Assembly (NCBI GenBank): GCA_016188215.1
Contig: JACPIF010000003.1
Coordinates: 35,388 to 99,387 of the forward strand
DNA: 64,000 nucleotides
Source: Candidatus Woesearchaeota archaeon
GTDB taxonomy: Archaea > Nanobdellota > Nanobdellia > Woesearchaeales > JACPIF01
Direction of reading: 5' to 3'
This document shows, one piece after another, positions 101 to 22,175 of this stretch. Each line of letters opens with the position of its first letter. Position 1 is the stretch's first letter. Below the pieces are notes generated by a model that was given only the letters and a program-made list of their open reading frames with translations, ran no database searches and had not been told where the DNA came from. Both the position numbers and the translations under genes were made by a program.

Positions 101-3100
101 TCAGATATTCACCACTGGCTTGCCTGATCTCCCGCCGCCCCGCCGCGCTGGCGAGGATGTTGTTGTGCCGCCCACTCCCTTTCCTGTTCCGGAGCTGCCA
201 TCCTCTTCACCGCTGCCGCCCCAGCATGCCGGCATGAACAGCGTATAGGCGCCGCCGCACGGGTCTCCTATATTCATCTGCTGCGGCCCGTTTGCAATAA
301 GCGGGCTGCTGAGCTCATCGCCCTCAGAGACCCCGTCAAGGCATGGCGTTACTTTTCCAGTGAGTTCAATGAATTTGATTGAAACCTTATCATAGCTGTT
401 CTGGCTCTGTGCAAAGACCATGTTATTGCCTGCAAAATCAACAGGATCCCCGCCTGCCTCCACGCCAAATACGAAATCGCTGCCGTCGCCTGAATCAACA
501 AACAATGATCTCCTGCCTGAAGGGCCCGAGACCATTACCTTAAAGTTCATGTTGCAGCCCCTGCTCTCAATGCCAGGATTCACTTTCAGGCTGATCTTGT
601 ACAGGAACAGGTTCGGCTTTCTTTGCCCTGTGGACGCGTTGAAATCTATGATAGTTGCCTTCTCCCCTTCAACGTGGGCAAATGCCCCTGAAAGCGAGGT
701 TGCAAATGCAGCTCCTAGCTCATGTATGTCAGTTGCCCTGTCCGCGCATATCTGCGAAGTCCAGCCGTACAATTCCCCGGTCGGCCCGCCAAGTATGTTG
801 AGAAGCGTAGGGTCATCAACCCATGGGGCAGGCTCACTATACAGGAATGAGAAGAATGAATAGCCTTTAACTGCGGTCTGGATCTCCCTCAGCATATCTC
901 CGAACCAATTGAACCTTTGGACAACTGTAGGCTTGATTCTTTCTAATTGTTCTTTTGTTAGCTGAACTTTAATCCCTTGCTTTTCTAAATTATTAAGCAT
1001 TTGCGTTCCGCCAGTGACAGCCCAAAATGAAAATCTATCCAATGAAGTGCCAAGGAGATCGAGATATCTTATGTCCAATTGTCTTTCTTGGAGGTTAGGA
1101 TCATTCAGTCCAAAAGGTATTTGAGAAGCAACTGTCTCAACAACTGTTACACTTCCGTCAGGATAGAATTTAAGTGAAAGGCCATTAGCTGTGTTGTAAG
1201 TGATTATATCTGTTGAAGTTTTCGTAAAAGTAGAGCCATCATTTGCAATAAAAAGCTTTACACTTACTTCCAGTCCGTTTTTAGGATCACGATACTTCAA
1301 GTCGCTCTGGCTTTCATAAAATCCGTTTGGTTGCTTGTTTAAAGGAAGCAACAATGGATTTGCTTCTGCATAAACTGAAATCGGATAATAAAGCTTGCCA
1401 TCATCTTTGTTCTTATAAACGAGTGTATCACCTATTTTATAGGTATTGTACTTATTTTCATCAAAGGAAATAGTTCCGGAATAGTCATTGATAGTTGCTG
1501 GGGCGAGAGCAGGTGGCGGAGCACTAGGTACAGGAGTGCCGGCTGACACAGGAGCCTCCTTTTGCACTGGCGAAATTACCAAATTGCCAGTTCCTAGAGT
1601 ATTCTGAATCTTTGCGATTATCCCGGTTGTATCACTTCCAGACAGTTTTTCAGTAATGTATCTTAAATCAGATGCACTCAATGGATTACCACTGGAATCT
1701 GTAAATGTTATCTCTTGAATAGTCTTTTTTTGTTGAGTTTGTCCTGTATCTGCTACTGTAATAACATCATCTCCACGTTGTTCCCTTTGAACCTCTTTAG
1801 TAACTATTCTAACATCATAATTAATACCTTTCTCGTCTACAAATCTAACTAGCCGTGTGTCTTCACTTCTCTGCTCTGAATAGAATATACCAGTGGACAG
1901 CGCCGTATATGTATTTCCATCCAGCCCTTTATACGGCACAGCAGTTATCTCGCCCTCTTCCCTTTTAATATCTCCAGACACTTCAAATAATTCTCCGCCA
2001 ATATCAATGAACATCTTTTTATCTTTGTCCTGATATATCTGATATTCTTCTTTTTCATTCACGGTCATCTTTTCTACAGGCTTCAGCTTAAGAGCCGCTA
2101 TTTTCGCAGCTTCAGCCTCTTTAGCCTTACTCAAAGCCCTTTGTTGAACATCTCTAAAGCCAATTGGAACTTTCAACGGATTATTTGGATCTGCAGCATC
2201 CTTGGAAACTTGAGTTGCTCCACTGCTTGACACCAGTATAAGCCCTGTAAACCTGTGATAAGTATTAGTCAATACATTATTTCCTGCCTCATTAAACCAA
2301 ACCGGATTTGGAACTCCTCCTTGGCCATAGATGGCGTCATCAGTTATAGGAACCCCCCCTGAACTTATTGGCCTTAGAAACCAAAAACCTGTTGTTGGAT
2401 TTTGATCGGCTCTATAATAAACTTCAACCTGATTAACTTTATTTGGATCTTTGAGATCCTTGTGTTCCTCCAATCTGCCAACTATATCCCCCTTCTTCAG
2501 TTGTCTTTCAACACTATCAGAATCCACAAATGTAAGCGGAGGAATTGCAGAGGTTGTTCCGGTGGTTGCGGAATCTGGTGTTCCTGGGCGCACAACTGCA
2601 GCTTCAGCGGTTCCGGGTTTTGGTCCAGATTGGTCATCTTGAGGTTTTGCATCCCCGCTTGGAAAAGCTGCTGCAACAGCTTCGGGATAATATCTTCTCA
2701 GAATATTATAACCCTGCTCTTCGTTTGCATTTGCCAGTTCTGGAAAAAGGGAACTTTCTGATACATCAAACCATGTCAACTTAAAAAAACGTGACATTTG
2801 CCACTTTTGGGAATCTTTATTGAATCTGAACCAGAAAGATCTATACCATATACTGATTACTGGTTGTGAACTGGTCTCGAGTACAGGTGTTTCAGGCGTC
2901 TGCTGTCCTTTTTTAGCATTAGAGTTTTGAGCTTCTGGTGGTCTTTCCTCAGCAGCCCTTTCTGGAAACGGTCCTGGCCTGTCAGGCTCTCCGCCAGTGC
3001 TTGCTTTTGTGGAAGGCTCTGTTGGATATTTCTGTCCAAAAGTAAATGCTTTAAATCCGCCTTCATCTACGCATCCTTGCGGATTAATGCAGTACCATTC

Positions 3101-4540
3101 ATCTGCTCTTTGCTCCCAATCAGTAGCTTGCCCTATTGGTGAGGTAGTTGATGGTCCATCTCCAGGTGGCGTTTCGGCAGATGCTGGAGGCACTAATTGT
3201 GGCAATTCAGGTGTTTTTGCCCCTTCTGTTTTAGCCCATTCCTCCTGCAATTTTCTTAGCGCTTCGTAGCTTTTTGGAGAACTTGCGATCTTATTTACTT
3301 GGTCTTGAGTTAGAACAGTATTTCCACCCCAGTCATCAATAACAAATTTGCCATTTTCAATCTTTACCTTGGAATCTCCAAGAAATCCAAAGGTTGCTTT
3401 GGCTCTTAAATCGCCATTTCCATCTACATAAACTAGGTTCCCCCCGCCGATGTCAGTTGGATTCTCTTTAGTGAATTGGTTCTGTGGTTGTGGAGAGGCA
3501 CTTGCATCGTTCGCTTTTGGTTGGTCATCTACATTAGAACCAGCGGATTGAGCGCGGGCAGTTTCTCCACTCTCAGCCGATTGTATGTCTGTAATCACAA
3601 TGTCAATACTTTGCTTGATGATAACTCTGCTTTTACCTGACAGAGGCAGTCCACTACTGTCGACATCAGACTTATAATAAAATTGAGGTACGCCTCCAAC
3701 ATCAACAACTACAGCTTCTCTTCCCGCTATAGTAATCCTATAGCTATTGATTATTGATGGATCATTTACGCCAAATGCGCTGCTTACTACATCATATGCA
3801 GTAGCACCAGGATCTTTATCATAATCATATGAAACTGTGTAGATGCCACCTTCTGTTCGTATAGCTTCATACTCAACGCCCCTAGATTGTGTAGAGCCTC
3901 TTCCAATATTGTACCCCTCCATAAAGTGATTAGTTCTTCCTATGCCCGCGCTTCCCTCGTGTAAGCTTCCTTTAAATATGTCATTCGCTGGATTTTTTGG
4001 ATCTGCCAGATAAGCCTCAACTTGCCTGGAGGTAGGCATATTTCCAGGTCCTCTATTCCATGCTACCTGCAATTGATTCGCTCTTATATGATCTTGTGCG
4101 GAGGAATCAAACCTAGAATTTCTCATGAGATCTTGTGTTATCCATCTTGCAGCAATTTCTAATGATCCCTCCAAAGTATTCACATCATACATGCCATTCG
4201 GATTATACCTTCTGTCATTATATCTGGCGCCAGTTAAACCAAAAATGCCAGTGCTACCTGCTTTCTGATCAGCAGGATGATTGTGGTTGACATTTGTCCC
4301 ATAAGTTGATTCAGATGCATACAGCCCTTCCAAGGTTCCCCTAGGTATTTGAGGATATTTCACATAAGTTGCATCAAATTTTGCTTTAACTTCAGGCGGT
4401 ATAAGAGGAGAAACTGCCGCAGCCCCGCTCACCTTATTTCCATAATCTCCGCTAAGCAGAACCCCGCTGACTAGCATGATAACTGCTATGACCGCCAGCA
4501 TCTTCTGGAATTCGCTCATTGCCTTCTTGCTCTTTCTCAT
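101..4540 (-). CDS. giant secreted protein (1479 aa) with an N-terminal lytic transglycosylase/lysozyme-like (SLT-type) domain; the rest is probably beta-rich repeat/adhesin-like
   Basis: Uninterrupted 4.4 kb ORF with an N-terminal hydrophobic signal/anchor (MLAVIAVIMLVSGVLL). 'YASESTYG...STGIFGLTGA...DVNTLEGSLEIAARWI' matches the SLT catalytic ES motif plus a GLMQ-like segment. The start lies 4 nt after the upstream gene's stop. Confidence 0.85.
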   Translation of the reverse strand: MRKSKKAMSEFQKMLAVIAVIMLVSGVLLSGDYGNKVSGAAAVSPLIPPEVKAKFDATYVKYPQIPRGTLEGLYASESTYGTNVNHNHPADQKAGSTGIFGLTGARYNDRRYNPNGMYDVNTLEGSLEIAARWITQDLMRNSRFDSSAQDHIRANQLQVAWNRGPGNMPTSRQVEAYLADPKNPANDIFKGSLHEGSAGIGRTNHFMEGYNIGRGSTQSRGVEYEAIRTEGGIYTVSYDYDKDPGATAYDVVSSAFGVNDPSIINSYRITIAGREAVVVDVGGVPQFYYKSDVDSSGLPLSGKSRVIIKQSIDIVITDIQSAESGETARAQSAGSNVDDQPKANDASASPQPQNQFTKENPTDIGGGNLVYVDGNGDLRAKATFGFLGDSKVKIENGKFVIDDWGGNTVLTQDQVNKIASSPKSYEALRKLQEEWAKTEGAKTPELPQLVPPASAETPPGDGPSTTSPIGQATDWEQRADEWYCINPQGCVDEGGFKAFTFGQKYPTEPSTKASTGGEPDRPGPFPERAAEERPPEAQNSNAKKGQQTPETPVLETSSQPVISIWYRSFWFRFNKDSQKWQMSRFFKLTWFDVSESSLFPELANANEEQGYNILRRYYPEAVAAAFPSGDAKPQDDQSGPKPGTAEAAVVRPGTPDSATTGTTSAIPPLTFVDSDSVERQLKKGDIVGRLEEHKDLKDPNKVNQVEVYYRADQNPTTGFWFLRPISSGGVPITDDAIYGQGGVPNPVWFNEAGNNVLTNTYHRFTGLILVSSSGATQVSKDAADPNNPLKVPIGFRDVQQRALSKAKEAEAAKIAALKLKPVEKMTVNEKEEYQIYQDKDKKMFIDIGGELFEVSGDIKREEGEITAVPYKGLDGNTYTALSTGIFYSEQRSEDTRLVRFVDEKGINYDVRIVTKEVQREQRGDDVITVADTGQTQQKKTIQEITFTDSSGNPLSASDLRYITEKLSGSDTTGIIAKIQNTLGTGNLVISPVQKEAPVSAGTPVPSAPPPALAPATINDYSGTISFDENKYNTYKIGDTLVYKNKDDGKLYYPISVYAEANPLLLPLNKQPNGFYESQSDLKYRDPKNGLEVSVKLFIANDGSTFTKTSTDIITYNTANGLSLKFYPDGSVTVVETVASQIPFGLNDPNLQERQLDIRYLDLLGTSLDRFSFWAVTGGTQMLNNLEKQGIKVQLTKEQLERIKPTVVQRFNWFGDMLREIQTAVKGYSFFSFLYSEPAPWVDDPTLLNILGGPTGELYGWTSQICADRATDIHELGAAFATSLSGAFAHVEGEKATIIDFNASTGQRKPNLFLYKISLKVNPGIESRGCNMNFKVMVSGPSGRRSLFVDSGDGSDFVFGVEAGGDPVDFAGNNMVFAQSQNSYDKVSIKFIELTGKVTPCLDGVSEGDELSSPLIANGPQQMNIGDPCGGAYTLFMPACWGGSGEEDGSSGTGKGVGGTTTSSPARRGGGRSGKPVVNI

Positions 4541-4544
4541 ATTC

Positions 4545-7500
4545 CTAACCCAGGCTCGGAGTCCCCTCGCTCACCTTCGGCTTATTTTCATCCTGCAGCG
4601 CTTCCTTGCATGCCGCATCAGTATCAATCTTCAGCTGCTCCCAGACAGGCTCGCATCTTGCAGGCCCAATGCCCAGGTCGCATAGCACATCAGTGACCCA
4701 GCTGATAGTATCTGCAGTATAGCATGCATAGCAAAATCCAGTAGGCGTTAGCTCATTCATACAATTTAATTTGTAGCACACTATGGAAAGGCCAGTGCTC
4801 ACCAGCTCAAGCGGATGAGAAAGCGCTTTGGTGACAGCCTGCCCTATGCTTGTTAAAGCCGCCGCGAACGGAATTATATTGAACACCTGCCCCCACACGT
4901 ACTTGCAATATGCATAATCCCTTTGTGCAGTGCATAAGTAAAGCGGCATGCCGTTCTTGGTCTCCTTAAGGCAGTTGATGTACCTGCAGTCTATGACCCT
5001 TGCTTTCTGCAGATTATAGATAACCCCAGGCAGGCATAAAAACGCAACGCTACCCACCAGGCTTTGCTTTGGATCAATATTGGCAACATAAAACTGAGCC
5101 CATGCTTTTGGATCTTTGGTATTTTTCCCACGCACAGAACTAGGCACATTTGCATTGCTTAAGACATCAAAATACGGATTTTTTGCCCACTCTGCATCAA
5201 TAAGTGAAGCATCACTCCCGCTCTTTGACTTGGTGCCTGCTTCTTTTCTTAGCCAGTCTCCCCAGAAGAACTGGCAGTTTATTGCTTTGCAGAACTGCGC
5301 TGTCCGCGCCTGGAATCCAGTCTTTGCAAGTTCAACTGAAGCAGTTGTGCTGACTCCAAGGGCCTTGGCAAGCGGGCAGCAGAACCCTCCGCCAAACCCT
5401 CCCAAGGCAATTCCCGCCTGGCAGCATGATTTTAATTTTTCAGTCCCGCCAAAGAGAATATTCCATACAGTAAAAAGATAGCTAGTGAACTTGCACACAG
5501 TCTGCGCAAAATTCAGTATCTTCTGGGCAGTCTCCATCCAGGTGGCCTGAACAATCCAGCTGTCCCTTACCCTTTCAATCTCATCATTGATCCTTGAGTC
5601 AATAGTTCCAAGGGGATTGTTGAAGTAATTGATGGTGAACGTGATATTCTCCGTCTCTTCAGGAGAAAGCTCCCTGCCATCAACCAGCGTCCTCACCTTT
5701 ACAGTGCAGCTCACCTTTACAGAATCCTGCGGAGGCAGCGCTCTCTCCATGGTGAACTTGAAGAATGTATTGTAGGGAAGCGTGCTGTCAACTTTTGGAG
5801 TTATAGGATTGAAGTTGAAAACCTCAGGCTTGTTGCCGGTAGTTGAGCTGAGCAGCGCAGCAGTATCATCAGAGCATCTGTCAAGCGTAACTGATACAGG
5901 CCATCTTGTTAGGGAGCTTTCAGCTGTTGCAAAAGATGAAGGTGTTCTTGTCAAATTGGTATTTGCATCAACACTTAAGGAAACCGGGAACCATACGAAA
6001 GGGTCGTATCTTGTAACGAGCTGCTTGTCAAGCGCAGATGGTGATGGGCTTCCAACCGCAGCTTTCCAGTAATTCACCGGCTTGTCGCTTATCCCCGTTA
6101 CAGTAATGGCCTTTTTGTACACCAAGGCATTGCCCGCAATGTCGCTGAAATTAAACACAAGATCTTTTGCGATGAACCCCTTTATATTCACCTCATCAGT
6201 GTTCCATGCGCAGCGCCAGTTCCCTGCCGCATTCCTGGTGCAGTCATCAGCCTCCAGTATGCTCGCATTCTTGATGAATCCAGATGCGTCTAGAAACGCC
6301 CTGATCCCGTTCTCTTCAGCTAATTCAGCAGTAATTGCCAGTGCGTTTCCTGTTAAAATCAATCCAGGCAGCACGCCCTGTGATCCTGCAACTGCGCTTA
6401 CATTTACAGAAAGCACCGCAGGAGCTATGGTATCAAGCACAAGCGCGTCTATCCCTGCCTGTGCAGCCAAGGGATTGCCTGCCTTATCCTTGGTCAGGGG
6501 ATTAATGCCTATATATTTCTGCCCTGAAGATCCCGAAATAGGTATTGAATTCCAGACGCAGGTAACCTGCCCTTCGCCCGTGCAGCTGTCCGCAGGAACC
6601 GCATTGCCCGCGCCCAATCCTGAGGCATCAAGCAGGACATCTTTTGCATCCAGTCCAGAGCCAGTCTCAACAATTATTGCCTCAATCCTTTTTTTATTTG
6701 CACTGATATAGTAAGTCCCGTTTGAATCAGAAGATTCAGTATCTATATCGCTTACCACAGGCCCTTGCGTATCAATGAAGATATTGTAAACAAGCGATTC
6801 GGATGCATTGTTGCCTGCCTTGTCTGCTGCTTTGAAAGAAAGCGTGAGGGCAGTGCTCCGTGTAGTGTCAGGAGGCGCGTTCAGGTCAAGCGTCAATCCA
6901 TTCCAGAAGCATCGTGTCCTGTTTTGGTTAAGTGCCGAGCAGCTGCTTCTGGCAACATCACCCACAGTAACGCGTGGTGTCAATGCATTGAGATTCGCCT
7001 TGACTGTGTTCAGGTCCAGGCCGATATCCTGCTCAATGATGTCTACGCTTACTGTTATGCCTGTCAGTGCCCTGTTTGACACACCTGTGACAGCTCCTGA
7101 AGAGCTTGTGATGCTTACATTCTCAAAATCAGGAGGAGCCGTATCCGGCCGCAGCACTTTATCAAGGGCTATTATTCTTGTCCGCCTATTGCCTGCAGTA
7201 TCAGAAGCCTGCGCTGTGACAGACCCGGAAAATGTGGCAGTGTTCACCCTTATCAAGGCAGTGTTCAATGAGCAGCGCATCATGGTTTCATTTACAGCAG
7301 CGCACGAAGGTGTTGTTGAGCCGCCCCGCACGTCAAGGCTGCTCAGGTCAATGGCGAATGAATTTGTGTCAAGGAGTTTGTCTGACACCTCAAAGCTCAT
7401 GCGCGCCAGGTATGTCTCCGGCACGAAAAAATCAACGAAGGAGCCGTCCTGCTTCCTGATGTCAAACTCTTTAAGCTCAATGCTCGGGCTTGAGAAGTCA

Positions 7501-8273
7501 GTGGTAAAGCTCATGCTCTGGCCGGCCCGCTGCCCGAACAGGTCAAACGCAGCCAGCGTTGCAGTGGGATTGCCCTCTGCGAATGCATTGCTCAACTCCT
7601 GGACTGAGCCGCTGTAGCTGCATCCGCTCGGGAATATCTGGAAATTCCTGGAATAGTTGCCTGACGAGAGCGTGATATAGTTGAGCAGGCCTGTGCATTC
7701 AGCAGCGCCGCTTGATACCCTTGCCTTGTCAGTGAGTGTAAACGAAAAGGTGACGTTCTGGTTTGCCCCGTATTCTGACTTATCTGCCGAAGATGTAACC
7801 ACAGGCGCTTCTGTATCGCAGATTGGTGTTATGGTTTTTGCGTCTTTAAGCACGTCAGACTGGTTTAGGAGCCTTACGGTAAAGCTGAATTCAGGGCAGA
7901 TGATAAAGTCAGACATGTTCCTTGAGAATGTGCAGTCGTAGCTCCCGTCCGCCACCGGTGTGCAGGAGTCAAATGCAAACCCGCTGGAGCCTCCCGGCCC
8001 GATGAGCCGCACCTTGGTATTGTTCACAGATTCTGTATCAATAAAAGCGCGTGCAATGAACGTGTAGTAATCGGCATTGCTCCTCACATACCCGGTCACG
8101 CCATCCTTGCCGCGCACATTAAGGTTGCTCAATCCATTAGTTGCCGCCAGCGCATCTGCAGAATATATGGGCAGCATTATCATTAATGCGGCCAGGAAAA
8201 TTGCAATCCCTTCAATACCGCTAAAGCGATTCCGGAACTCTGTTTCAATACTCACCTTTCTTTTTGGGTTCAT
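4545..8273 (-). CDS. giant secreted surface protein (about 1240 aa), paralog of 16878..22175, with a conserved Cys-rich C-terminal domain
   Basis: The N-terminus aligns with 16878..22175 ('LNVRGKDGVTGYVRSNADYYTF' versus 'LTVKGRDGIKGYVRSNIDFFTF'), and a shared C-terminal motif reads 'CRYINCLKE...YAYCKYVWGQ' versus 'CMYRNCLQHE...CLYVDGAQ'. The start is assigned to the Met before the signal peptide at 8273 (the ORF track extends to 8327); a TATA-like box lies about 30 bp upstream of 8273. Confidence 0.85.
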   Translation of the reverse strand: MNPKRKVSIETEFRNRFSGIEGIAIFLAALMIMLPIYSADALAATNGLSNLNVRGKDGVTGYVRSNADYYTFIARAFIDTESVNNTKVRLIGPGGSSGFAFDSCTPVADGSYDCTFSRNMSDFIICPEFSFTVRLLNQSDVLKDAKTITPICDTEAPVVTSSADKSEYGANQNVTFSFTLTDKARVSSGAAECTGLLNYITLSSGNYSRNFQIFPSGCSYSGSVQELSNAFAEGNPTATLAAFDLFGQRAGQSMSFTTDFSSPSIELKEFDIRKQDGSFVDFFVPETYLARMSFEVSDKLLDTNSFAIDLSSLDVRGGSTTPSCAAVNETMMRCSLNTALIRVNTATFSGSVTAQASDTAGNRRTRIIALDKVLRPDTAPPDFENVSITSSSGAVTGVSNRALTGITVSVDIIEQDIGLDLNTVKANLNALTPRVTVGDVARSSCSALNQNRTRCFWNGLTLDLNAPPDTTRSTALTLSFKAADKAGNNASESLVYNIFIDTQGPVVSDIDTESSDSNGTYYISANKKRIEAIIVETGSGLDAKDVLLDASGLGAGNAVPADSCTGEGQVTCVWNSIPISGSSGQKYIGINPLTKDKAGNPLAAQAGIDALVLDTIAPAVLSVNVSAVAGSQGVLPGLILTGNALAITAELAEENGIRAFLDASGFIKNASILEADDCTRNAAGNWRCAWNTDEVNIKGFIAKDLVFNFSDIAGNALVYKKAITVTGISDKPVNYWKAAVGSPSPSALDKQLVTRYDPFVWFPVSLSVDANTNLTRTPSSFATAESSLTRWPVSVTLDRCSDDTAALLSSTTGNKPEVFNFNPITPKVDSTLPYNTFFKFTMERALPPQDSVKVSCTVKVRTLVDGRELSPEETENITFTINYFNNPLGTIDSRINDEIERVRDSWIVQATWMETAQKILNFAQTVCKFTSYLFTVWNILFGGTEKLKSCCQAGIALGGFGGGFCCPLAKALGVSTTASVELAKTGFQARTAQFCKAINCQFFWGDWLRKEAGTKSKSGSDASLIDAEWAKNPYFDVLSNANVPSSVRGKNTKDPKAWAQFYVANIDPKQSLVGSVAFLCLPGVIYNLQKARVIDCRYINCLKETKNGMPLYLCTAQRDYAYCKYVWGQVFNIIPFAAALTSIGQAVTKALSHPLELVSTGLSIVCYKLNCMNELTPTGFCYACYTADTISWVTDVLCDLGIGPARCEPVWEQLKIDTDAACKEALQDENKPKVSEGTPSLG

Positions 8274-8298
8274 TATTTTCTGACTTTTTATCTGGCTT

Positions 8299-8321
8299 TT
8301 ACATATTTTACATATTTTAAT
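8299..8321 (-). promoter_or_regulatory. TATA-like box(es) upstream of the 4545..8273 gene
   Basis: Minus-strand 'TAAAATATGTAAAATATG' lies 30-45 bp upstream of the 8273 ATG. Confidence 0.4.
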
Positions 8322-8330
8322 GAGCATACT

Positions 8331-8435
8331 GAGCGCGTAATGCGCGCTCTACCATAGGGAAGTCCCCGAACAGCAAGGCTACAGCCAGAATCGGGGACTG
8401 TTCACAGCAGCCGAGATTCATCTCGGCTGAGTCAT
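8331..8435. repeat. modular intergenic hairpin repeat, copy A (GCGCG hairpin, inverted gtccccga..tcggggac core, CAGCCGAG-atttatc-CTCGGCTG hairpin)
   Basis: Hairpin gagcgcg-taatg-cgcgctc; a core 'gtccccgaacag...aatcggggac' that is the reverse complement of the cores at 38876 and 45157; 'tgttcacag' followed by the hairpin cagccgag-attcatc-ctcggctg, which is identical to the one at 45297. Confidence 0.75.
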
Positions 8436-8480
8436 GCTCGTTTCTAGTTTTACCCGTTCCTGGTTTTATTATCATAGTCT

Positions 8481-10643: not shown

Positions 10644-10733
10644 TTATAGGCCATAACCCGCCTTTTCTATATATAAAGGTTTCTGGTAGAGCTTTGTATA
10701 GTCTTGAAACCATAAAGAACCACTAAAACCCTG

Positions 10734-10878
10734 CAACTGGCTGCGCCACGCCACCCAGCTGCCCAGTCAGCTGGCACCTGAGGCGACCTCGCTTTTGCTC
10801 GGTCACCAGGTCCGTGATTGTGGATGTGCTCGCAGTTCGCGGACCCCGCACAGTCCAGTTGAGCTAGAGCTCAACTGG
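10734..10878. repeat. modular intergenic hairpin repeat, copy G (divergent core variant)
   Basis: 'gtccgtgatt...gttcgcggac' core variant, followed by 'cacagtccagttgagctagagctcaactgg' (compare 38917 'cacagtccagctctgctttagctgagctgg'). 'ggcgacctcgc..ggtcaccagg' recurs inverted at 59240-59290. Confidence 0.55.
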
Positions 10879-14372: not shown

Positions 14373-14394
14373 ATTTGAACGAGCCTTTCCTATT

Positions 14395-14600
14395 TTGGAA
14401 CTGGTCAAGCTGGGTAAACATTTCGAAAACCATGGTTTTCGGATGTCTCGAAACTTTGTTTCGAAACATGTCCGCGATTCAAGCTGTAAAGCCTTCTGTT
14501 CGCGGACCAACGTCACCACGGAGCGAAGCCAGAGGAACTTTAGTTCCTTGGCCAAGAAAATGCTATGCATTTTCTTTGGCTTTAGCTGAGCGACCACTTT
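14395..14600. repeat. modular intergenic hairpin repeat, copy B
   Basis: Hairpin tcgaaac-ttt-gtttcga; core 'gtccgcgattcaagctgtaaagccttctgttcgcggac' (a ccc/ggg to cgc/gcg compensatory variant of the 38876 and 45157 core); hairpin ccagaggaac-tttag-ttccttgg; hairpin gaaaatgc-tat-gcattttc. Confidence 0.75.
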
Positions 14601-14631
14601 GCTCATTTTTCCAATTTTAATACTCTTTATT

Positions 14632-15519
14632 TTATCCATGGTGTGAGTCTTTGAATTTCCTATAAGCCTCATAATAGTAAAACTTGATCCACGCGGTTTC
14701 CATGATGAACAGCAGCAGCAGGATCAAAAGCGCGGCATCCAATGAAAGATAGATTGCAAGCTGCGCCGATATGCTGAAAAGCACTCCTGAAAACAGCACT
14801 ATGATTATCATAAAGAATGTGAAAAAGAATACAGCAGGCATGAACCTGTAAAACCTGAATATAGCTGTGTGCAGCGCATGCTTCGTATTGCCCCAGGCGC
14901 TTCTTGCTTCAGTATAGCTTGCATGCATGACCATCAGCAAATAAAGGAAAGCAATGACCCAGAGCTGTGCAGAAAGTACGTCAAGTGGGCTCCTCAGGAA
15001 ATAGAGGCAGCCAAAAAAGGTAAGTATAGCTGCCCAGAACCACATAAAGTTTATGGCAAGAAATCTCTTGAAGTAAAGCCTTGAAAAATCAGTTCTCTTG
15101 ATTTTTGCCCATGCATACCCCTTAATCAGCGACACTAAAAACACGGCAAAAGTAAACATTACGGCAATTGTCGCTACAGTCTTCCGCAAAAAGCTGCTGA
15201 GCGCAGCTCCCAAAAGATACACGCCATCGTATAATTCACTGATTACCTCAGGCGTAGCCTGAATCCTGGGGTCATTCATGAACTGGAATACCGTAATGGC
15301 CTTTGGCAGCGCTACATTTGCCTGCTCTGCATAGGAATTGAGCAGTTGCTTGAAAATTCCGGCAGTGAGCAGCAGCCCAATAATTAGCAGAATGTCCATG
15401 GCAAGCACAATGAAATACCGCCTGTCAAGGTCAAGGCTTCTCATGAATGCAGTGCTGTAGAACCATGCGATTAGATTGGTTCTTTCCTTCACCTTCCTGG
15501 CTTTCTTATGCGCTGCCAT
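14632..15519 (-). CDS. polytopic membrane protein (295 aa)
   Basis: Six to eight hydrophobic helices; 1-nt overlap with the downstream ORF. Confidence 0.75.
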   Translation of the reverse strand: MAAHKKARKVKERTNLIAWFYSTAFMRSLDLDRRYFIVLAMDILLIIGLLLTAGIFKQLLNSYAEQANVALPKAITVFQFMNDPRIQATPEVISELYDGVYLLGAALSSFLRKTVATIAVMFTFAVFLVSLIKGYAWAKIKRTDFSRLYFKRFLAINFMWFWAAILTFFGCLYFLRSPLDVLSAQLWVIAFLYLLMVMHASYTEARSAWGNTKHALHTAIFRFYRFMPAVFFFTFFMIIIVLFSGVLFSISAQLAIYLSLDAALLILLLLFIMETAWIKFYYYEAYRKFKDSHHG

Positions 15520-16016
15520 TATCCTTCCACCTTGATCACAGGCACTTTAACATATTGGTTGTTTGAATATGTCAGCACGACATGCGTCAGCTGCTCAGTG
15601 ATGTTAAAGTATTTCGCGTAAAATCCGACTCCTGGATTACTATTAGTTGCGGTTGACGCCTCCTGCACGCTCCACGGGCTTATCGGGCTGTTGCCAACAA
15701 GCTCAACCTTGTAGGAGACTGAGCTGGCAGCAGGCTCTATATACCATGTGACTTTGAAAAGCGAGGTATTATCCGGCTGCTCTATCTTCTCACCCTGCAG
15801 TGTCAATGTCAGGACAGAAAGGTAGATTGGCTGCGACAGCTGTGCGCCTGCCTGTGCAGCCTCTGTCCCGCCCCATTTGCTGCAGATGTCCAGCTCCCAC
15901 TGCTCAACCTTATACCAATCATCCATCTTGGGGTTGAACTGCTTGGATTTCGCATAGGCTATAGTTGTAAGCAGAAGGAAAGACAAAAGCAGCACAATAA
16001 TTCTCTTATCAGTCAT
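15519..16016 (-). CDS. small secreted protein (165 aa)
   Basis: N-terminal signal peptide (IIVLLLSFLLLTTIAYA), then a hydrophilic body. Confidence 0.7.
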   Translation of the reverse strand: MTDKRIIVLLLSFLLLTTIAYAKSKQFNPKMDDWYKVEQWELDICSKWGGTEAAQAGAQLSQPIYLSVLTLTLQGEKIEQPDNTSLFKVTWYIEPAASSVSYKVELVGNSPISPWSVQEASTATNSNPGVGFYAKYFNITEQLTHVVLTYSNNQYVKVPVIKVEG

Positions 16017-16044
16017 TAATAATCCCTCCTTTGCATTCCATAAG

Positions 16045-16055
16045 ATTTATAAATA
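16045..16055 (+). promoter_or_regulatory. TATA box for micro-ORF 1
   Basis: 'atttataaata' centred about 26 bp upstream of the 16076 ATG. Confidence 0.45.
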
Positions 16056-16075
16056 ATAAAGTATAGACGATTATT

Positions 16076-16186
16076 ATGGCAAAGAAGTATAAAACTAAGG
16101 AAGAACTGATAGCAGCTATAAATGAAGCTATGAAGGATCCAGAATTTAGGAAAGGTATCCGACAGTTTATTAAGGCTACTACTTGA
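16076..16186 (+). CDS. micro-protein 1 (36 aa, MAKKYKTKEELIAAINEAMKDPEFRKGIRQFIKATT)
   Basis: A tandem paralog of 16254..16361 sharing the 'KDP[ED]FRK..[RA][QR]F[IV]K.TT' motif, with its own TATA box; the minus-strand ORF covering this region has low-complexity, un-protein-like sequence. Confidence 0.5.
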   Translation: MAKKYKTKEELIAAINEAMKDPEFRKGIRQFIKATT

Positions 16187-16221
16187 TATTATGTTCAAAC
16201 CTTCTTTTTCTATTGCGAAAT

Positions 16222-16231
16222 CTTTATATAT
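16222..16231 (+). promoter_or_regulatory. TATA box for micro-ORF 2
   Basis: 'ctttatatat' centred about 27 bp upstream of the 16254 ATG. Confidence 0.45.
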
Positions 16232-16253
16232 CTCTTCTTCTTCAATAGAGATT

Positions 16254-16361
16254 ATGAAATCAAAAAAATATGAAGATTTTTGGGAAAAACTGGAAGAATG
16301 GCAAAAAGATCCAGATTTTAGGAAAGCAGTAGCAAGATTTGTCAAGATAACAACCTCCTGA
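16254..16361 (+). CDS. micro-protein 2 (35 aa, MKSKKYEDFWEKLEEWQKDPDFRKAVARFVKITTS)
   Basis: Paralog of micro-ORF 1 with its own TATA box; its 3' end overlaps the 3' end of the convergent PIN gene by about 20 nt. Confidence 0.5.
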   Translation: MKSKKYEDFWEKLEEWQKDPDFRKAVARFVKITTS

Positions 16362-16878
16362 TTTCTTTTATGAATTTTGTATAGTCCTCAAAATACGGCG
16401 TTCTGATATTATTTAATCCGTTTACTATTTTGTAACTCTTAACTGCTGTTTCGCTTGCCATTGTTTTGTTGTCTTCTGAATAAATTATATCAAAATTCTT
16501 CATGCTCGATCCTGCCACTATAATAAAATCATTCAGAATTTCATGCTCCTTTGAAGAACCTCCTAATTCTTTATATACTTTATAATACTTTCCTGCGAGA
16601 TCTTTCATCTCTTGGTCTATGACAAGTGTATGATTCCCCACCAGCAAATCATAGAAATTAAGTACCGTTAATCTTACCTTTTCATTACCAATAATAGTTT
16701 TGCGTGAAGTCGCTCTTAATTCCTTTCTTATGACGTCAAATCCGTAAATTATAAAATGGCCTTTCAATACGCCTCTATCAACAGCTTCACGTATAACTTT
16801 CTGATGAAATTCCTCTAATATCCTGCCATAAATATTAGTATCAAGAATTACTCTTTTTGCAGGGCTATCTTTACGCAT
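16342..16878 (-). CDS. PIN-domain (VapC-like) protein (178 aa)
   Basis: N-terminal 'RVILDTNIY' carrying the conserved acidic residue of PIN domains, plus a later 'IIYSEDNK'. The gene is AT-rich relative to its neighbours. Its start codon overlaps the stop of the 1765-aa gene by 1 nt (TGATG). Confidence 0.6.
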   Translation of the reverse strand: MRKDSPAKRVILDTNIYGRILEEFHQKVIREAVDRGVLKGHFIIYGFDVIRKELRATSRKTIIGNEKVRLTVLNFYDLLVGNHTLVIDQEMKDLAGKYYKVYKELGGSSKEHEILNDFIIVAGSSMKNFDIIYSEDNKTMASETAVKSYKIVNGLNNIRTPYFEDYTKFIKEIRRLLS

Positions 16879-19800
16879 CAGTAATCCCTCCTTTCATCAG
16901 GGTACCCTGCGGTTGCGCAGTAATCCGGACCGTTTAACGCGCTTTTATCATAGCTGAATCCGCCATATAATGTGTCCCAGACACCTTTCAGCTCAAGCAA
17001 TGTTTGTACGGTCCCTACAATTCCGCATGCTGTAGGATATTTGCCTGCAGTTGCTATAAATGTTGTAAATGCCTGCTGGCAGTATTCAGGGCCGCCTGTA
17101 ATCGAATATGCTCCGCAAACACTTTGATATATCAATCCCCCAATCAAGAAAGGAAGCTTTTGCGAAATAGCATTAATCAGGTTGCCCATTGCATTCTCAT
17201 TGTCAAATAACTTGAATTGAGCTCCATCAACATAAAGGCATTGCCTTTCTTTATATGCCAAATCACATGCTGTAGTTGTAACTCCAGAGGTTAATTCATG
17301 CTGCAGGCAGTTTCTATACATACATTTTATCTGCCGCTCCTTCTTGAGATTGTAGATTATTGGCGGATAGCACATGCACGCATATGCATAAGGCTTGCTC
17401 TTGTACGGATTCCATATCCATGTTGCACTTTTAAGTTCTTCAGGGGCCTCTGTCTCTACAATAGAATTTCTCCAGCCGTTATTGTCTGGCCTGTAAGTTA
17501 CTTGAGGCGGTTTATAATCTCCAACACCAGGTACATCAGGGGGACCTGCTGCTTGGCCTGTGAAAGGGAAGCCTGAGTAGATGACAGTTGATATAGGTCC
17601 AGAAGGTGGTGGAGGTGTAGAAGGTGGTGGAGTTATAGTTGGCTGATCTCCAGTTACGAATAGATTTAGCGCTAAGGGATTTTCAGCGAGTTTCCAATTA
17701 ATTCCATTCGAAGTCTCGTACCAATACCATACACCATCAATTTGTCTGCTGGAATATACAAAAAATCCTCTCTCATCTCCTGCATTTGGGATATATATCC
17801 GCTCTCCAGAAAGCACATCAACAGCATAATAGCTTCCCCGTTCATCCCAAGCTTGGTATGCTAAATTTTTATCTACGTTCGTAGCTATATCATCAATAAT
17901 ACCCTGAGCAAATCTAGGATACCCTAAATCAACATTTTGTGGAGGAGAAGGACTAAATGTTTCTATAAGATTATATGGATCAGTATCTCCAAGAGGGGGG
18001 GTGGGTGGAGTGGTGAGTATATTAGTGGATGATTGGGAAATATCTCTTAATCTCGCAGGAAGTTGATCTTCAGGTATACTCCTTATCTCATCTCCACGAG
18101 CTACTTGCCATTCCAATCCTCTATCCGTCTGTGATGCAACATAAACTAAACTTCTATCATCACTTGGTATTAGAATTAATTTGTTATCCTCGGTAATTGC
18201 CATAAAATTATCATTTTTGTCAACTCGATGATATGTCGCTATGCTTTTATAATAATCAACTAGATCAGCTTGAGGTGATGTTGCACCGTCATAATTTGGG
18301 CTCCACCCACTCCCACTAAAATCTGTTTGTTCCACACCTCCTTCTTGATAACTTGCAGGAACTACTAAACCTCCCTCTTTTGGAGTTTTATATCCTTGAT
18401 ATGCCTCTTGTTCCTCTTTAGTCGCTGGCGCAATACTTTTGCTCCATCCAGACCCATCTTCATTTTCAGATAGCCTTCCAGTAAAAGGTTTTTGTTCTTG
18501 AGACTCAGGTGGTGGTGGACTTGATCCTCCTACACTAGAAGGACTTTGAGTAACAGGCGCAGAAGGAGTACCAATTGGAGAATATCTATAAGTTTCATAA
18601 GATTTTAGAATAATAGATTCTCCTCCTCCAACATCAACTGTATATACCCATACACCTGGTTTTTCACCCACTTTCTCGCCAGCAGTAACTTGGACAATAT
18701 TGCCTTCTCTACCATCAACAATAATTTTATCACCCTTTCCTACTGCAGTTTTGGTGCTAGTGTCTGTAACATCTGCTCCAGTCCCAGTTCCAAAGAAATT
18801 AGCCACAGTCCCCTTAATATGCTTTCCAAATGCCTTATCCAGAGCATCAAATCCGACATCTATCCAATCTTCCCAGTCGCACAATGCGCATTGGTAGCTT
18901 ATTGCGCAGCCCATCTTGTTTATCATGCCTATTAGGCTTAGCGCTGCAGCTGGGTTGCCGCTAACAGCACTTGAAGCTGCGCCTGAAACCCCCCCTGCTG
19001 CCGCAGTCGCAGCACCTCCCAAGCCAAACGGCCCGGGCGGCCATATGAATTTGTCAACAAATGAGTGGAACCATCCGAATTTAGTGCAGATAGACATGAA
19101 ACTAGTTTTTGCACTGTTCCATACTGCTGTCCCTGCAACAATTGTAGAGGCAGATGTTGCCAAGGCTGGTGAAAATCCCGCTGTAGTTGGACATGCAGCA
19201 GTTGATGCGGATGCCGTAGCAAATATCCCGGCAACAGTATCAGCGGATTTTGCTGCAAGAATATTGCCTGTTGAGGATAAAGCATTATACTCTGCAACAC
19301 CTTCTGTAACCCCTATCTCTAATGCAATTAGTTTAGCCTTTACTGGACAACATACAGTAGATGTTACAACAGCAGAACAGCCTGCAGAAGCAGCAGGAAT
19401 TGCAGCTGTAAAAGCAGCGGTACCAGCTGACATTGAAGTTGATATTTGGCTTATTGCATTTATCTCTTGAAAATTCGTAACAGTATACCACAGCAATTTC
19501 ACATTCTGCAACACGCTATTCAACTGCCCCATTAATTTGGAAATAGTGCACCACGTTGCTAATATGCTTGCAAACTTTTCTTTTGCTTCTATCTCTTTTC
19601 CTAAGTCTTTTATATCTTTGTCAATCTCATTTAATTTAGCCTGCACGTTTGCATCTGCAACACCAGTAGGTGCATCATAAAGCGGGATTTTCAGCTCTAT
19701 GGCCTCAACTTCAGGCTTTGAAAAGATAGTGCTGCCTCTTTTCACTGTCATGCTGAGCTTGCATGGTATAGTTATCTCATTCGCAGCAACATTGCCTACT

Positions 19801-22175
19801 TCAGAAGTCAGCCTGAAAGCAATAACAGGATCAATAGTTCCTTCATTTATGATATAGGTGCTTCCTCTCTCTGCATACTCTGAACTGCAATCTGCGCTCA
19901 TAGAGAGTATCTGCACGTTCTCTTTTGTCCCTAAAGAAACCTTGCCGAACATGCTGAATGGAACTTGTGATGTAGCTTTTCTTGGCACTTTGGTAGGTGT
20001 TATCCCGGTGCTCTTAACTGTAAGAAAATCAGGAGTCCTGCGCGCATCAGGCTCAGCTATTTCAAGCAACAGAACTCTCTCAGCAGTATTCCCTGCAAAG
20101 TCCTCAACTAATATCTTCACTTTATCTGACTGCGCTTTGGCAGGCAAGCCTGTTAATTCAAGATGGCATGTCACGTCATTCCTGTTTGTTTCATTATCAG
20201 TAGCGCTCCTGCATTCCATTCCCAGCTCAGTTGCATTAACAATGCTTCCCGGATACAGCACTGCTCTCTTGACACCTGAAACAGTATCTGCAGCTTTCAC
20301 TTCAAAGAAAATCTTGTCTGTATATGCGGGATACTGGGGTATTTGCTTTATTTCATTGATTGCAGGATTGCCCTCATCTATCTCAAGCTCAAGGGACAGT
20401 GAACTTGCAGCCTTGTTCCCAACCTTGTCCTGAATCAGCAAACTGCTGCTTATGGCCCTTCTGTCAGTGAAGCTGCTTCCAAGCTTATTCCAGTAGCACG
20501 TAAATATATCGCCCTGCTGCACACATCTGTCTGCAGCCAGATTTGGATTTCCGGTTATGGCAGATGCATCAAGCATAACATGGGACTCATCTAGCCCCAT
20601 GCCTATCTCCTGCAACACCAGCACGAATGTGCTCCCCTTTGGTGAGATATAGTTGACAGTCTCAGGCTCCTGCCCTTCCACATAAAGCTGCAGTGGAACA
20701 GGGGGCTCAGCATCAACAAAGACGCTATAAGGAAGATTCTCAGTTATATTATTGCCTGACTTGTCGCCTGCGGTGAACGCAAGGCTTTTGTGATTCAGCC
20801 CTTGGACATCAAGCCTTGCATTGACATTGTTCCAGGTGCACCTTGTGAGATTTTCCTTTAGAGGAGTGCAGTAATCCTTCGCAAGGTTTTTGTAGTTTGC
20901 AAAAGAGTTCAGTGCAGATAAGTCAGCCTTGACTGTTATTGTTTCAAGACCAGTCTCAGGCTCAAGTATGTCAACGCTGATGCTCACCTGATGCGTTCCC
21001 GGATTGGTGACATTAAACACTTTGCCTTGCTTCTGCACATTAAGGTTAGCTATCCTTGGCGCTTTCTTGTCAACAGGAAGGGATTTGACTAGGCTCAGCA
21101 CAGTTGTCTTCTTGTTGCCTGTTGAATCTTTTCCAGAGACAGTAATTATTCTGCTGAGTGAAGGCTCCTGAAGTGATAAGGGAATATTGCTCCATGCGCA
21201 GCGCTTCCTCCCATCTATATCAAAGCATCCATATTCAGCTGACGTAATGCCAAACTCGCTCAAGTCAGCCTCTAGGCTGCTTTCATCAAAATCAGGCTCC
21301 AGCACATCAACTGCAAATTCCACCAGTACCTGCATAGGCAGGAAATAGGCAATATCTTTATGGTTTGTATCCGTTACATTCACATAAGCCAGGATGAAGC
21401 TCAATCCCTGGAAATCAGTATCAAAATGAGGGTAGGCGCTGCCACCTTGGCCGAAAGCATCAAAACCAGTTACATTGAGCGTTACGCTGCTAACATTGGT
21501 TCCGGTATTGAAAACTGTTGCTGATTCTGTTATGGTTCCAGAGTAGCTGCATCCATTTCCAGGGGTTATCGTGTATGCTTTGGAGAAGCTGCCTGAGCTG
21601 ACTGTGATGGTATTCTTTATTCCGGAGCATTCAAAAGCTGAGCTGCTGCTGTAGGCAGTATCCTGAACAGAATAGGAGATGGCAACTGTATCCTGCGAAC
21701 TGTACTTGGCCTTGTCAACAGATGCTGTGACTGATGGAGCTGCGGTATCGCACAATACTGTTGCCTGCTCGTCATCAATAAAATTTCCGTTAGGATCATA
21801 CAGATTGACATCAAACGTAGTCTTTGGGCATATAAGGAACCCGGTCATGTTCCTCGCAAGCTTGCACTCATATCCATCACTTGAAGAGATGCAGGATTCA
21901 AACGCAAATCCTCCGTTGCTTGAGGTTCCTCCCAGCCTGACTTGCTCTGGTGCAATATTCTGGTCGCCATTTTTTGCAATGACTGAAAAGGTAAAGAAGT
22001 CAATATTGCTGCGGACATACCCCTTGATACCATCCCTTCCCTTTACCGTCAGGCTTGACAACCCCTGCGGCGCAGCCTGAAGGGAGGCGAGCGTAACCAG
22101 GAGCAGCAGCACTGCAACTATCCCTAGGCTTATACCTCTTCTAACATCCCTAGTGACCCCTTTTTTTTCCTTCAT
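16878..22175 (-). CDS. giant secreted surface protein (1765 aa), paralog of 4545..8273, with a Cys-rich C-terminal domain and an AT-rich inserted middle segment
   Basis: Signal peptide (LGIVAVLLLLVTLASLQA); N- and C-terminal paralogy to 4545..8273; Pro-rich linkers (PPPSTPPPPSGP). Confidence 0.9.
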   Translation of the reverse strand: MKEKKGVTRDVRRGISLGIVAVLLLLVTLASLQAAPQGLSSLTVKGRDGIKGYVRSNIDFFTFSVIAKNGDQNIAPEQVRLGGTSSNGGFAFESCISSSDGYECKLARNMTGFLICPKTTFDVNLYDPNGNFIDDEQATVLCDTAAPSVTASVDKAKYSSQDTVAISYSVQDTAYSSSSAFECSGIKNTITVSSGSFSKAYTITPGNGCSYSGTITESATVFNTGTNVSSVTLNVTGFDAFGQGGSAYPHFDTDFQGLSFILAYVNVTDTNHKDIAYFLPMQVLVEFAVDVLEPDFDESSLEADLSEFGITSAEYGCFDIDGRKRCAWSNIPLSLQEPSLSRIITVSGKDSTGNKKTTVLSLVKSLPVDKKAPRIANLNVQKQGKVFNVTNPGTHQVSISVDILEPETGLETITVKADLSALNSFANYKNLAKDYCTPLKENLTRCTWNNVNARLDVQGLNHKSLAFTAGDKSGNNITENLPYSVFVDAEPPVPLQLYVEGQEPETVNYISPKGSTFVLVLQEIGMGLDESHVMLDASAITGNPNLAADRCVQQGDIFTCYWNKLGSSFTDRRAISSSLLIQDKVGNKAASSLSLELEIDEGNPAINEIKQIPQYPAYTDKIFFEVKAADTVSGVKRAVLYPGSIVNATELGMECRSATDNETNRNDVTCHLELTGLPAKAQSDKVKILVEDFAGNTAERVLLLEIAEPDARRTPDFLTVKSTGITPTKVPRKATSQVPFSMFGKVSLGTKENVQILSMSADCSSEYAERGSTYIINEGTIDPVIAFRLTSEVGNVAANEITIPCKLSMTVKRGSTIFSKPEVEAIELKIPLYDAPTGVADANVQAKLNEIDKDIKDLGKEIEAKEKFASILATWCTISKLMGQLNSVLQNVKLLWYTVTNFQEINAISQISTSMSAGTAAFTAAIPAASAGCSAVVTSTVCCPVKAKLIALEIGVTEGVAEYNALSSTGNILAAKSADTVAGIFATASASTAACPTTAGFSPALATSASTIVAGTAVWNSAKTSFMSICTKFGWFHSFVDKFIWPPGPFGLGGAATAAAGGVSGAASSAVSGNPAAALSLIGMINKMGCAISYQCALCDWEDWIDVGFDALDKAFGKHIKGTVANFFGTGTGADVTDTSTKTAVGKGDKIIVDGREGNIVQVTAGEKVGEKPGVWVYTVDVGGGESIILKSYETYRYSPIGTPSAPVTQSPSSVGGSSPPPPESQEQKPFTGRLSENEDGSGWSKSIAPATKEEQEAYQGYKTPKEGGLVVPASYQEGGVEQTDFSGSGWSPNYDGATSPQADLVDYYKSIATYHRVDKNDNFMAITEDNKLILIPSDDRSLVYVASQTDRGLEWQVARGDEIRSIPEDQLPARLRDISQSSTNILTTPPTPPLGDTDPYNLIETFSPSPPQNVDLGYPRFAQGIIDDIATNVDKNLAYQAWDERGSYYAVDVLSGERIYIPNAGDERGFFVYSSRQIDGVWYWYETSNGINWKLAENPLALNLFVTGDQPTITPPPSTPPPPSGPISTVIYSGFPFTGQAAGPPDVPGVGDYKPPQVTYRPDNNGWRNSIVETEAPEELKSATWIWNPYKSKPYAYACMCYPPIIYNLKKERQIKCMYRNCLQHELTSGVTTTACDLAYKERQCLYVDGAQFKLFDNENAMGNLINAISQKLPFLIGGLIYQSVCGAYSITGGPEYCQQAFTTFIATAGKYPTACGIVGTVQTLLELKGVWDTLYGGFSYDKSALNGPDYCATAGYPDERRDY

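Follow-up and report, generated by a model that had tools for sequence, protein, structure and literature searches.

Host contact has been proposed as the role of the SPEARE giants of Nanohaloarchaeota, which are exported, multi-domain DPANN proteins. Woesearchaeota and related lineages rank among the most abundant archaea yet to be cultured and are assumed to be attached to other cells; their hosts and attachment machinery are not known. Large proteins with lytic transglycosylase (LT) domains that are specific to Woese- and Pacearchaeota have been described and read as tools that bind or degrade bacterial walls (PMC8204110; PMC9723730). A class III signal peptide is a hydrophilic leader that ends in Gly, with archaeal exceptions, followed by about 21 hydrophobic residues that form the assembly helix (PMC4471445), and archaeal class III proteins of the bindosome type are known to be encoded apart from filament machinery (PMC4471445; bioRxiv 10.64898/2026.04.22.720090). 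Here we analyze a cluster of giant exported proteins encoded in a 64,000-nucleotide stretch (the window) of a Candidatus Woesearchaeota genome (assembly GCA_016188215.1, contig JACPIF010000003.1, positions 35,388 to 99,387 of the forward strand). The genes of the cluster are designated A, B, C, D, E, F, G, I, J, and U113, and the related loci and proteins compared with the window carry L and P numbers. We found no description of the cluster, its pilin-type partners, or the B/J family in the literature.

The locus is best read as the larger part of a cluster that encodes a lineage-specific, multi-protein cell-surface assembly that would attach to other cells, probably bacteria. The account that we prefer, at a probability of roughly 45%, is that C and E are cleaved and present partner giants, that the resulting array attaches, and that A-type heads open the bacterial wall. 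The prepilin peptidase of the cell would cleave the pilin-like proteins C and E, whose N-terminal helix would keep them in the membrane or bring them into a short type IV filament. C and E would hold or present the Ig-repeat giants, C with B and E with J, in an arrangement comparable to that of minor pilins with PilY1-type tip adhesins. The array would bind another cell, the muramidase-like head of A would open bacterial peptidoglycan locally, and the small archaeon would attach to, or feed on, its bacterial partner.

Pilin-like proteins and their proposed giant partners

C (8481..10643, minus strand, 720 amino acids) and E (12093..14372, minus strand, 759 amino acids) are, by their N-terminal sequences, modular type IV pilin-like proteins of about 700 residues with predicted class III processing. 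All 39 aligned members of the C family begin with M..[K/R][G/A/S]↓Q[V/I/L]T[L/V/I]F[I/V]I[I/L]G. The leader is short and basic and ends in K/R-[G/A/S]; Gln comes next and then about 21 hydrophobic residues, with Gln16 and Gly24 invariant. The signal peptide and N-terminal helix of C are encoded by nucleotides 10536..10643 (minus strand). The class III signal peptide of E reads MIFQSKKS↓QLAVFIILGILFL (nucleotides 14283..14372). The short leader and the stretch of about 21 hydrophobic residues are present in both proteins. Conserved residues within the N-terminal anchor are not expected of a plain signal anchor, and across the window and five loci the strict class III pattern matched C/E-family genes only. 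The two proteins align over their full length (BLASTP, 25% identity, E 5e-50), which bears out the paralogy claimed by the sequence-only reading that preceded this analysis.

The AlphaFold model of C computed with the 39-sequence alignment is confident, with a mean predicted local distance difference test score (pLDDT) of 86.7. It consists of an N-terminal helix (residues 13-41), a second helix (56-82), an alpha/beta domain that extends to about residue 425, and two beta-sandwiches. The alpha/beta head domain (amino acids ~50-425, nucleotides 9369..10496, minus strand) is a new fold, and the beta-sandwich domains follow it (amino acids ~440-720, nucleotides 8484..9326, minus strand). Together they make up the head of about 650 residues that C and E carry. 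Sequence and profile searches of the PDB with the C family returned nothing significant, and the fold of the C head had no PDB match. One strand of the head carries the invariant residues E412, N414, and N418 and the near-invariant R416, and a D385-x-S387-x-P389 motif is also present. We read the polar strand and the motif, without proof, as a putative ligand site.

An alternative is a bindosome-like array for scavenging nutrients, in which class III proteins would expose binding or hydrolytic heads at the surface and, with an SLT-type protein, harvest peptidoglycan fragments or other environmental polymers independently of any fixed partner cell. Archaeal class III signal peptides do serve substrate-binding proteins apart from pilus genes, the polar strand with its DxSxP motif resembles a ligand site, and related clusters encode SLT, LysM, and M15 domains. 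However, transporter genes were absent in and beside the cluster at every locus examined, no known binding-protein fold was found for the C head, and giant Ig-repeat proteins are typical of adhesion rather than solute binding. We regard a scavenging array as distinctly unlikely.

The partner giants in the preferred account are B (4545..8273, minus strand, 1242 amino acids) and J (16878..22175, minus strand, 1765 amino acids). B has a Sec-type signal peptide (...SADALA↓ATNGL; nucleotides 8145..8273, minus strand), about seven Ig/cadherin-like domains with a Cys pair in each (5658..8144, minus strand), and a disulfide-rich helical C-terminal domain with the core CLPGVIYNLQKARVIDCRYINCL (amino acids 873-1242, nucleotides 4548..5657, minus strand). 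In J, an N-terminal signal peptide precedes the Ig-like repeat region (amino acids 34-821, nucleotides 19713..22076, minus strand), and the Cys-rich helical C-domain is in two parts (18828..19712 and 16881..17483, minus strand) split by an insert of about 450 residues (17484..18827, minus strand). The repeats of both proteins amount to about seven units of roughly 115 residues, each with a closely spaced Cys pair. They gave weak matches to Big_3_3 and Big_13, and the last unit resembles cadherin/Ig-like folds. The proposed paralogy of B and J holds in alignment statistics, both for the N-terminal 584 residues (BLASTP, 34% identity, E 5e-96) and for the shared C-terminal Cys-rich core (33% over 86 residues, E 8e-9). 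B-type and J-type proteins form separate, conserved subfamilies, and each goes with its own pilin-like partner. J-like genes were found in L011 and P0003, and E-like orthologues in L004, L009, and L011. A word-indexed homologue search performs poorly for B, with 4 matches for the whole protein and 8 fragments for a C-domain profile.

The B/J end domain comprises about 370 residues with 12 invariant or near-invariant Cys and the core motif CLPG[V/I]IYNL[Q/N]K[A/E]R.I.C.Y..CL. It has no PDB relative by sequence or by fold. Because a strongly hydrophobic segment is absent, the domain is taken, on a helical prediction, as a disulfide-stabilized extracellular helical bundle. In B and J, the counts of N-x-S/T sequons are near expectation (15 observed versus 13 expected in B, 9 versus 14 in J). 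The sequence-only reading had also placed this Cys-rich module in D and in K, an exported protein encoded outside the cluster at 49173..51662. That claim failed: alignment of the B/J C-terminal profile by hhalign gave probabilities of 0.9% for D and 0.1% for K, and D and K match one another at chance level (BLASTP, E 0.88). D and K are Cys-rich, yet by these comparisons they are unrelated to the B/J C-terminal module.

Conservation and extent of the cluster

The neighborhoods of three C-family members, nine species-representative genomes, and fourteen metagenome contigs were compared, with every open reading frame (ORF) searched against the window proteins. The 9 genome and 14 metagenome loci were found with an alignment narrower than the 39-sequence one. 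The gene following the C-like gene is B-like in 16 of 16 loci with downstream sequence (about 13 of them distinct), and a D-like gene lies just upstream of the C-like gene in most loci. The C-terminal 320 residues typical of A are encoded after the B-like gene in L004, L006/L021, L008, L014, L015, L027, and L028. Genes resembling E, J, G, and F lie farther upstream in the order of the window; L011, for example, reads U113-J-G-E-D-C-B. A U113-like gene stands at the start of the cluster in five lineages (L011, L013, L019/L027, L025, and L029), and a methionyl-tRNA synthetase (MetRS) gene neighbors the cluster in the window, L008, and L023. This order is retained while identities drop to 23-30%. 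Because synteny is conserved, the genes belong together: the cluster is chromosomal, old, vertically inherited, and functionally coupled, and it is neither a mobile element nor an island of unrelated adhesins.

The second of these alternatives, a loose island of fast-evolving adhesins whose genes are functionally uncoupled, would explain the fast divergence and the few detectable B homologues, the toxin-antitoxin-type insertions (I, and VapBC after A), and the difference in A-type domain content between genomes. It is very unlikely given that order and pairing are kept even where identity is only 25-30%, in more than a dozen distinct loci, that both paralogue pairs are ancient and retained, and that promoter spacing suggests operons. 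An integrated element, either a provirus or a conjugation/type IV secretion island with a VirB1-like transglycosylase, is near refuted. An SLT-type protein with large surface proteins does recall Gram-positive conjugation loci, and toxin-antitoxin genes and Hint/nuclease insertions are present, but no integrase, ATPase, relaxase, or capsid gene is. We found no relative of the cluster among 2.9 million viral contigs (IMG/VR), the best template modeling score against viral folds (BFVD) was 0.15, and the search of PHROGs was empty. The MetRS neighbor is common to distant genomes, and GC content is unremarkable. A conjugation or provirus island was rejected on the combined viral-fold, PHROGs, viral-contig, and synteny results.

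The main rival to an attachment assembly is an S-layer-like two-component coat, with B and J as canopy, C and E as stalks, and A as an envelope-associated accessory. The adjacency of the genes and their housekeeping-like conservation agree with a coat. The pilin-type anchor, the three paralogous pairs described below, and the rarity of the families are at odds with it, and we detected no sequence or fold relation of cluster proteins to known S-layer proteins. We regard a coat as unlikely, and attachment through presented giants remains the preferred account.

The C family has about 50 members in a collection of 5.8 billion proteins, all without names, and wherever the source states an organism it is Woesearchaeota or 'Nanoarchaeota'. 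The taxon suspected by the sequence-only reading, a DPANN archaeon, agrees with NCBI, where proteins identical to B and C are called 'Candidatus Woesearchaeota archaeon' (locus tag HYV81_). On present evidence, the cluster is restricted to Woesearchaeota/'Nanoarchaeota'-type DPANN archaea. The label 'uncultured Methanosarcinales archaeon' was attached on deposition to L009-L011, L013, and L015, whose proteins share 44-64% identity and the same synteny with those of Woesearchaeota. The 'Methanosarcinales' label is probably a submission placeholder with no true host-lineage signal.

The cluster also extends to the left of window position 1 on the same contig (L032, 14485..24440). From position 1 the order is a VapB/PIN pair, a second F-like membrane protein (265 amino acids), and then larger genes. 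The first of these encodes a third C/E-family protein of 652 residues with the N-terminus MTGKRG↓QVTLFIIVGI, and the last encodes a Sec-secreted giant of at least 2094 residues with faint fn3/Big_13 matches. This is also the gene order in L008. The full unit thus exceeds 35 kb and holds three pairs of a pilin-like protein plus a giant.

The A family and the attachment account

A (101..4540, minus strand, 1479 amino acids) has an N-terminal hydrophobic anchor (nucleotides 4448..4501, minus strand), an N-domain that is a lysozyme/LT-like candidate (amino acids 45-215, nucleotides 3896..4408, minus strand), a long variable middle, and the C-domain that defines the family (amino acids 1160-1479, nucleotides 104..1063, minus strand). 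The C-domain matches the proteins encoded after B in seven loci at E values of 1e-38 to 1e-6. In L028 the protein encoded directly after the B-like gene carries a genuine SLT domain (PF01464, 75.6 bits; cut-off 21.3), with the A-type C-domain after it. The L004 locus has an SLT domain (30.8 bits) and half of a Hint module, then a DUF1016 nuclease gene, past which an ORF starts with the other Hint half and ends in an A-type C-domain. Two of the A-type relatives scanned therefore have a genuine SLT head at the position of the A N-domain. These comparisons suggest that the A family combines a constant C-domain with an exchangeable head, which in at least some members is a peptidoglycan enzyme. 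The C-domain would dock to other proteins of the cluster.

In several A-type relatives (L004, 17018..22065; P0065; P0067, L006 1..7248) the N-terminal cell-wall domain is directly followed by a Hint/PT-HINT/intein-like module. The split gene of L004, with DUF1016/YhcG between its halves, looks like an intein with a homing nuclease in an exported protein. A itself contains a single N-x-S/T sequon, against about 11 predicted by its composition, a scarcity that may reflect avoidance of N-glycosylation.

The N-domain of A is a probable divergent lysozyme/LT-like domain on the grounds of motifs, weak alignments, and position. An exhaustive search of 1.84 billion representatives with the N-terminal 331 residues identified 7 relatives. 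They include a short form of A (829 amino acids), a protein combining the N-domain with Hint, and a protein of 2677 residues beside the L006 cluster with LysM, PT-HINT, and Peptidase_M15_3. Family-1 LT motifs can be recognized by eye in A as ES at 77-78, G-x-F/L/M-G/Q-L at about 98, and an AYNRGP-like motif at about 160; A itself reads GIFGL at 98 and AWNRGP at 160. ES is invariant in six relatives, and every weak alignment places ES and GLMQ in register. Neither the SLT profile (PF01464) nor any solved lysozyme-fold structure matched the domain significantly. In profile searches of the PDB the EtgA transglycosylase and lysozymes ranked first or close to it, but with weak E values (EtgA 0.2 and lysozyme C 1.3 with the canonical relative included; lysozyme 1 0.64 without it). 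Direct hhalign comparison with the SLT domains gave E 0.0034 (L004) and 0.044 (L028). The strongest argument for a cell-wall enzyme is the position of the domain, because the L028 and L004 orthologues carry SLT there.

Several observations weigh against the account in which C and E present the giants and A opens a wall. Neither the 64-kb window nor the flanking sequence seen contains a gene for a prepilin peptidase, a platform protein, or a filament ATPase; since archaeal class III proteins are known away from filament machinery, the missing genes are no argument against processing. The model of the B/J C-domain from which its helical prediction derives is unreliable (pLDDT 56). The match of the A N-domain to SLT or lysozyme is not significant, and Pfam returned nothing at E ≤ 10. 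Most A-type relatives lack a recognizable SLT, and their heads are unrecognizable. The LT-like domain adjoins the membrane anchor, which is awkward for reaching the wall of another cell, and strict conservation beside a housekeeping gene also suits a structural role in the envelope.

The host-interaction function proposed by the sequence-only reading is nevertheless reasonable, given the pilin-type signal peptides, the Ig-like repeats, and the peptidoglycan-directed domains of A-type relatives. It is likewise reasonable, from the sequences, to regard the locus as a DPANN surface/host-contact locus with three structurally unassigned families. The claim of that reading that the proteins are exported or membrane-anchored agrees with the export and N-terminal signals found. 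A cell-wall-directed A-type head would point to bacterial rather than archaeal partners. A more specific proposal is a type IV-filament-linked device for attachment and penetration, peculiar to Woesearchaeota-type DPANN archaea, in which giant modular pilins (C, E, and a third copy) each present a matched Ig-repeat giant (B, J, and a third copy) and the A type supplies exchangeable wall-cutting heads (SLT, LysM/M15). We consider it unlikely in this full form. If true, it would give an archaeon living on bacterial hosts its first concrete machinery, and the B/J end domain would be a new fold. What had been hypothetical giants become a defined, conserved cluster in which C and E would be processed like pilins, C would pair with B and E with J, and A-type proteins would carry a cell-wall-directed head. 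The C head, the B/J end domain, and the A C-domain are three families without structural relatives; they are targets for structure determination and could mark contact sites in enrichment cultures.

Remaining genes of the locus and comparison with described systems

The coordinates given by the sequence-only reading for five giant ORFs of 1479, 1242, 720, 759, and 1765 residues, all on the minus strand, were confirmed, and these genes do dominate the coding capacity (about 81% of 22 kb). The gap between A and B is 4 nucleotides, as reported. Mechanical ORFs extend to 8327 for B and to 14672 for E. The shorter starts that the reading chose are correct in both cases, as judged by the NCBI product for B (1242 amino acids) and by the alignment of E-family N-termini. 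The reading listed three small companions, D, F, and G, whose membrane or secreted character was confirmed. Absent from its list were the PIN-like gene I (16342..16878), the small gene U113 (22176..22517), and the extension past position 1. Pfam, NCBIfam, and PHROGs were essentially blank for all cluster proteins.

D (10976..12100, plus strand, 374 amino acids) and C are divergently transcribed. D is a single-pass membrane protein with a short cytoplasmic N-domain, a transmembrane segment at residues 59-77, a CARDB-like beta-sandwich, and Cys-rich repeats. It matches Pfam Dicty_CTDC (E 7e-9) and, weakly, MG2/CARDB. Identical DNA to that of the window is present in Logan assemblies of SRR12113430 and sister runs. 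Compared with an otherwise 100% identical SRR12113430 Logan contig, D in the window is shorter by 177 nucleotides (59 codons, in frame) at 11466/11467. The segment absent from the window completes the CARDB-like beta-sandwich and holds the CTDGIQNQGEQGIDCGGPC motif; the difference stems either from variation within the population or from a collapse in the assembly. F (14632..15519, minus strand, 295 amino acids) is polytopic, with 6 hydrophobic segments, and its start overlaps the stop of G. It has no Pfam match, weak relatives in L004 and L008, and the second copy in L032 beyond the window edge noted above. F was considered as a prepilin peptidase and rejected, as it has no GxGD motif, no Peptidase_A24 match, and no conserved acidic residues.

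G (15519..16016, minus strand, 165 amino acids) has a hydrophobic N-terminus with a Sec signal peptide and is secreted; in L011 a G-like gene (E 2e-20) lies between the J-like and E-like genes. The start of I (16342..16878, minus strand, 178 amino acids) coincides with the final base of J. The protein is PIN-like by a VILDTNIY motif at the N-terminus only and has no Pfam match even at E ≤ 10. The gene is absent between the J-like and G-like genes in L011 and present in two copies after the B-like gene in L010 (11549..12966). I is probably an inserted, wandering toxin-type gene outside the core of the cluster. Between G and I, 16017..16341 (plus strand) contains two small paralogous ORFs of about 36 residues, one MAKKYKTKEELIAAINEAMKDPEFRKGIRQFIKATT and the second with KDPDFRKAVARF; a 109-residue minus-strand ORF listed there looks spurious. 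U113 (22176..22517, minus strand), the first gene of the cluster, encodes a small basic protein of about 91 residues from Met23, with an isoelectric point of 9.9 and no Pfam match.

Archaeal TATA boxes (TTTATATA) lie 31-37 nucleotides ahead of the starts of U113 (from Met23), G, D, and C. The box TTTATATA is at -31 from Met23 of U113, the box of D is at -31, and that of G is at -37, with GGAGG ahead of the ATG. The promoter scan found no TATA box ahead of J, I, F, E, B, or A. The gene pairs G-F and J-I overlap, and the stop of U113 abuts the start of J. From these box positions, overlaps, and the abutment we infer four predicted transcription units, U113-J-I, G-F-E, D, and C-B-A; the last is probably one unit because B has no TATA box ahead of it. 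Near-identical promoter boxes AAGGTTTATATAT / CCTTTATATATAG / GCTTTATATACC are found at 22473..22486, 23165..23178, 10668..10680, and 10945..10955. They stand 31-37 nucleotides before start codons and support the chosen starts, a spacing consistent with short-leader archaeal transcripts. The spacer between C and B (8274..8480, no strand) contains copies of a GC-rich palindromic repeat, with units such as GGGAAGTCCCCGAACAGC...GGGGACTGTTC and CAGCCGAGATTCATCTCGGCTG. The intergenic repeat reported earlier is thus present, and copies 89-97% identical occur in two other intergenic sites, 38872..38917 and 45158..45324. Positions 1..23000 contain no long direct or inverted DNA repeats beyond short chance-level pairs.

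As a whole the window is ordinary cellular DNA, and its other genes include those for MetRS, inositol monophosphatase, NFACT, a Na+/H+ exchanger, and a Band 7 protein. Base composition is even across the window, and tRNA and Rfam scans of it gave no match. Outside the cluster, 30223..31581 encodes an exported protein of 452 residues with NPCBM_assoc/MG2-type beta-sandwich matches. K (829 residues), likewise exported, combines Big_9, He_PIG, and cadherin-like domains with a linker rich in Pro and Gln and an unrelated Cys-rich end of its own.

Among described systems, C and E resemble modular type IV pilins such as Streptococcus sanguinis PilB (PMC8179133): a short basic leader, here with Gly/Ala/Ser at its end, precedes a conserved hydrophobic helix, about 21 residues long, to which a large functional module is joined. 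As with the Sulfolobus bindosome proteins (PMC4471445; bioRxiv 10.64898/2026.04.22.720090), the genes of C and E lie away from filament ATPase and platform genes. C and E differ from both in that their head of about 650 residues is without a PDB match, in their pairing with giant non-pilin proteins, and in the apparent confinement of the family to Woesearchaeota-type DPANN archaea. The operons of minor pilins with PilY1/PilC are alike in that a pilin-type gene adjoins a gene for a large Sec-secreted non-pilin protein (about 1000-1300 residues) that the pilin could present. We found nothing in sequence or fold that relates the cluster to PilY1: B and J are chains of Ig repeats with a Cys-rich helical end and no beta-propeller. 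The cluster also lacks the set of small minor pilins and nearby pilus machinery of those operons. The analogy is functional only.

The reported LT-domain proteins of Woese- and Pacearchaeota resemble A and its relatives, which are likewise giant, exported, and of the same lineages, and two A-type orthologues have SLT at the N-terminal position. Unlike the reported proteins, the A N-domain is too divergent to score as SLT, and the A family is defined here by its C-domain and its fixed place after B, neither of which was found described in PMC8204110 or PMC9723730. SlaA/SlaB of Sulfolobales offer a further likeness, as a large secreted protein of multiple beta-sandwiches is encoded beside a membrane-anchored beta-sandwich partner. 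With the SPEARE giants no shared domains were detected; in contrast to them, the proteins described here are smaller, fall into paralogous families, and are encoded by a conserved multi-gene cluster.

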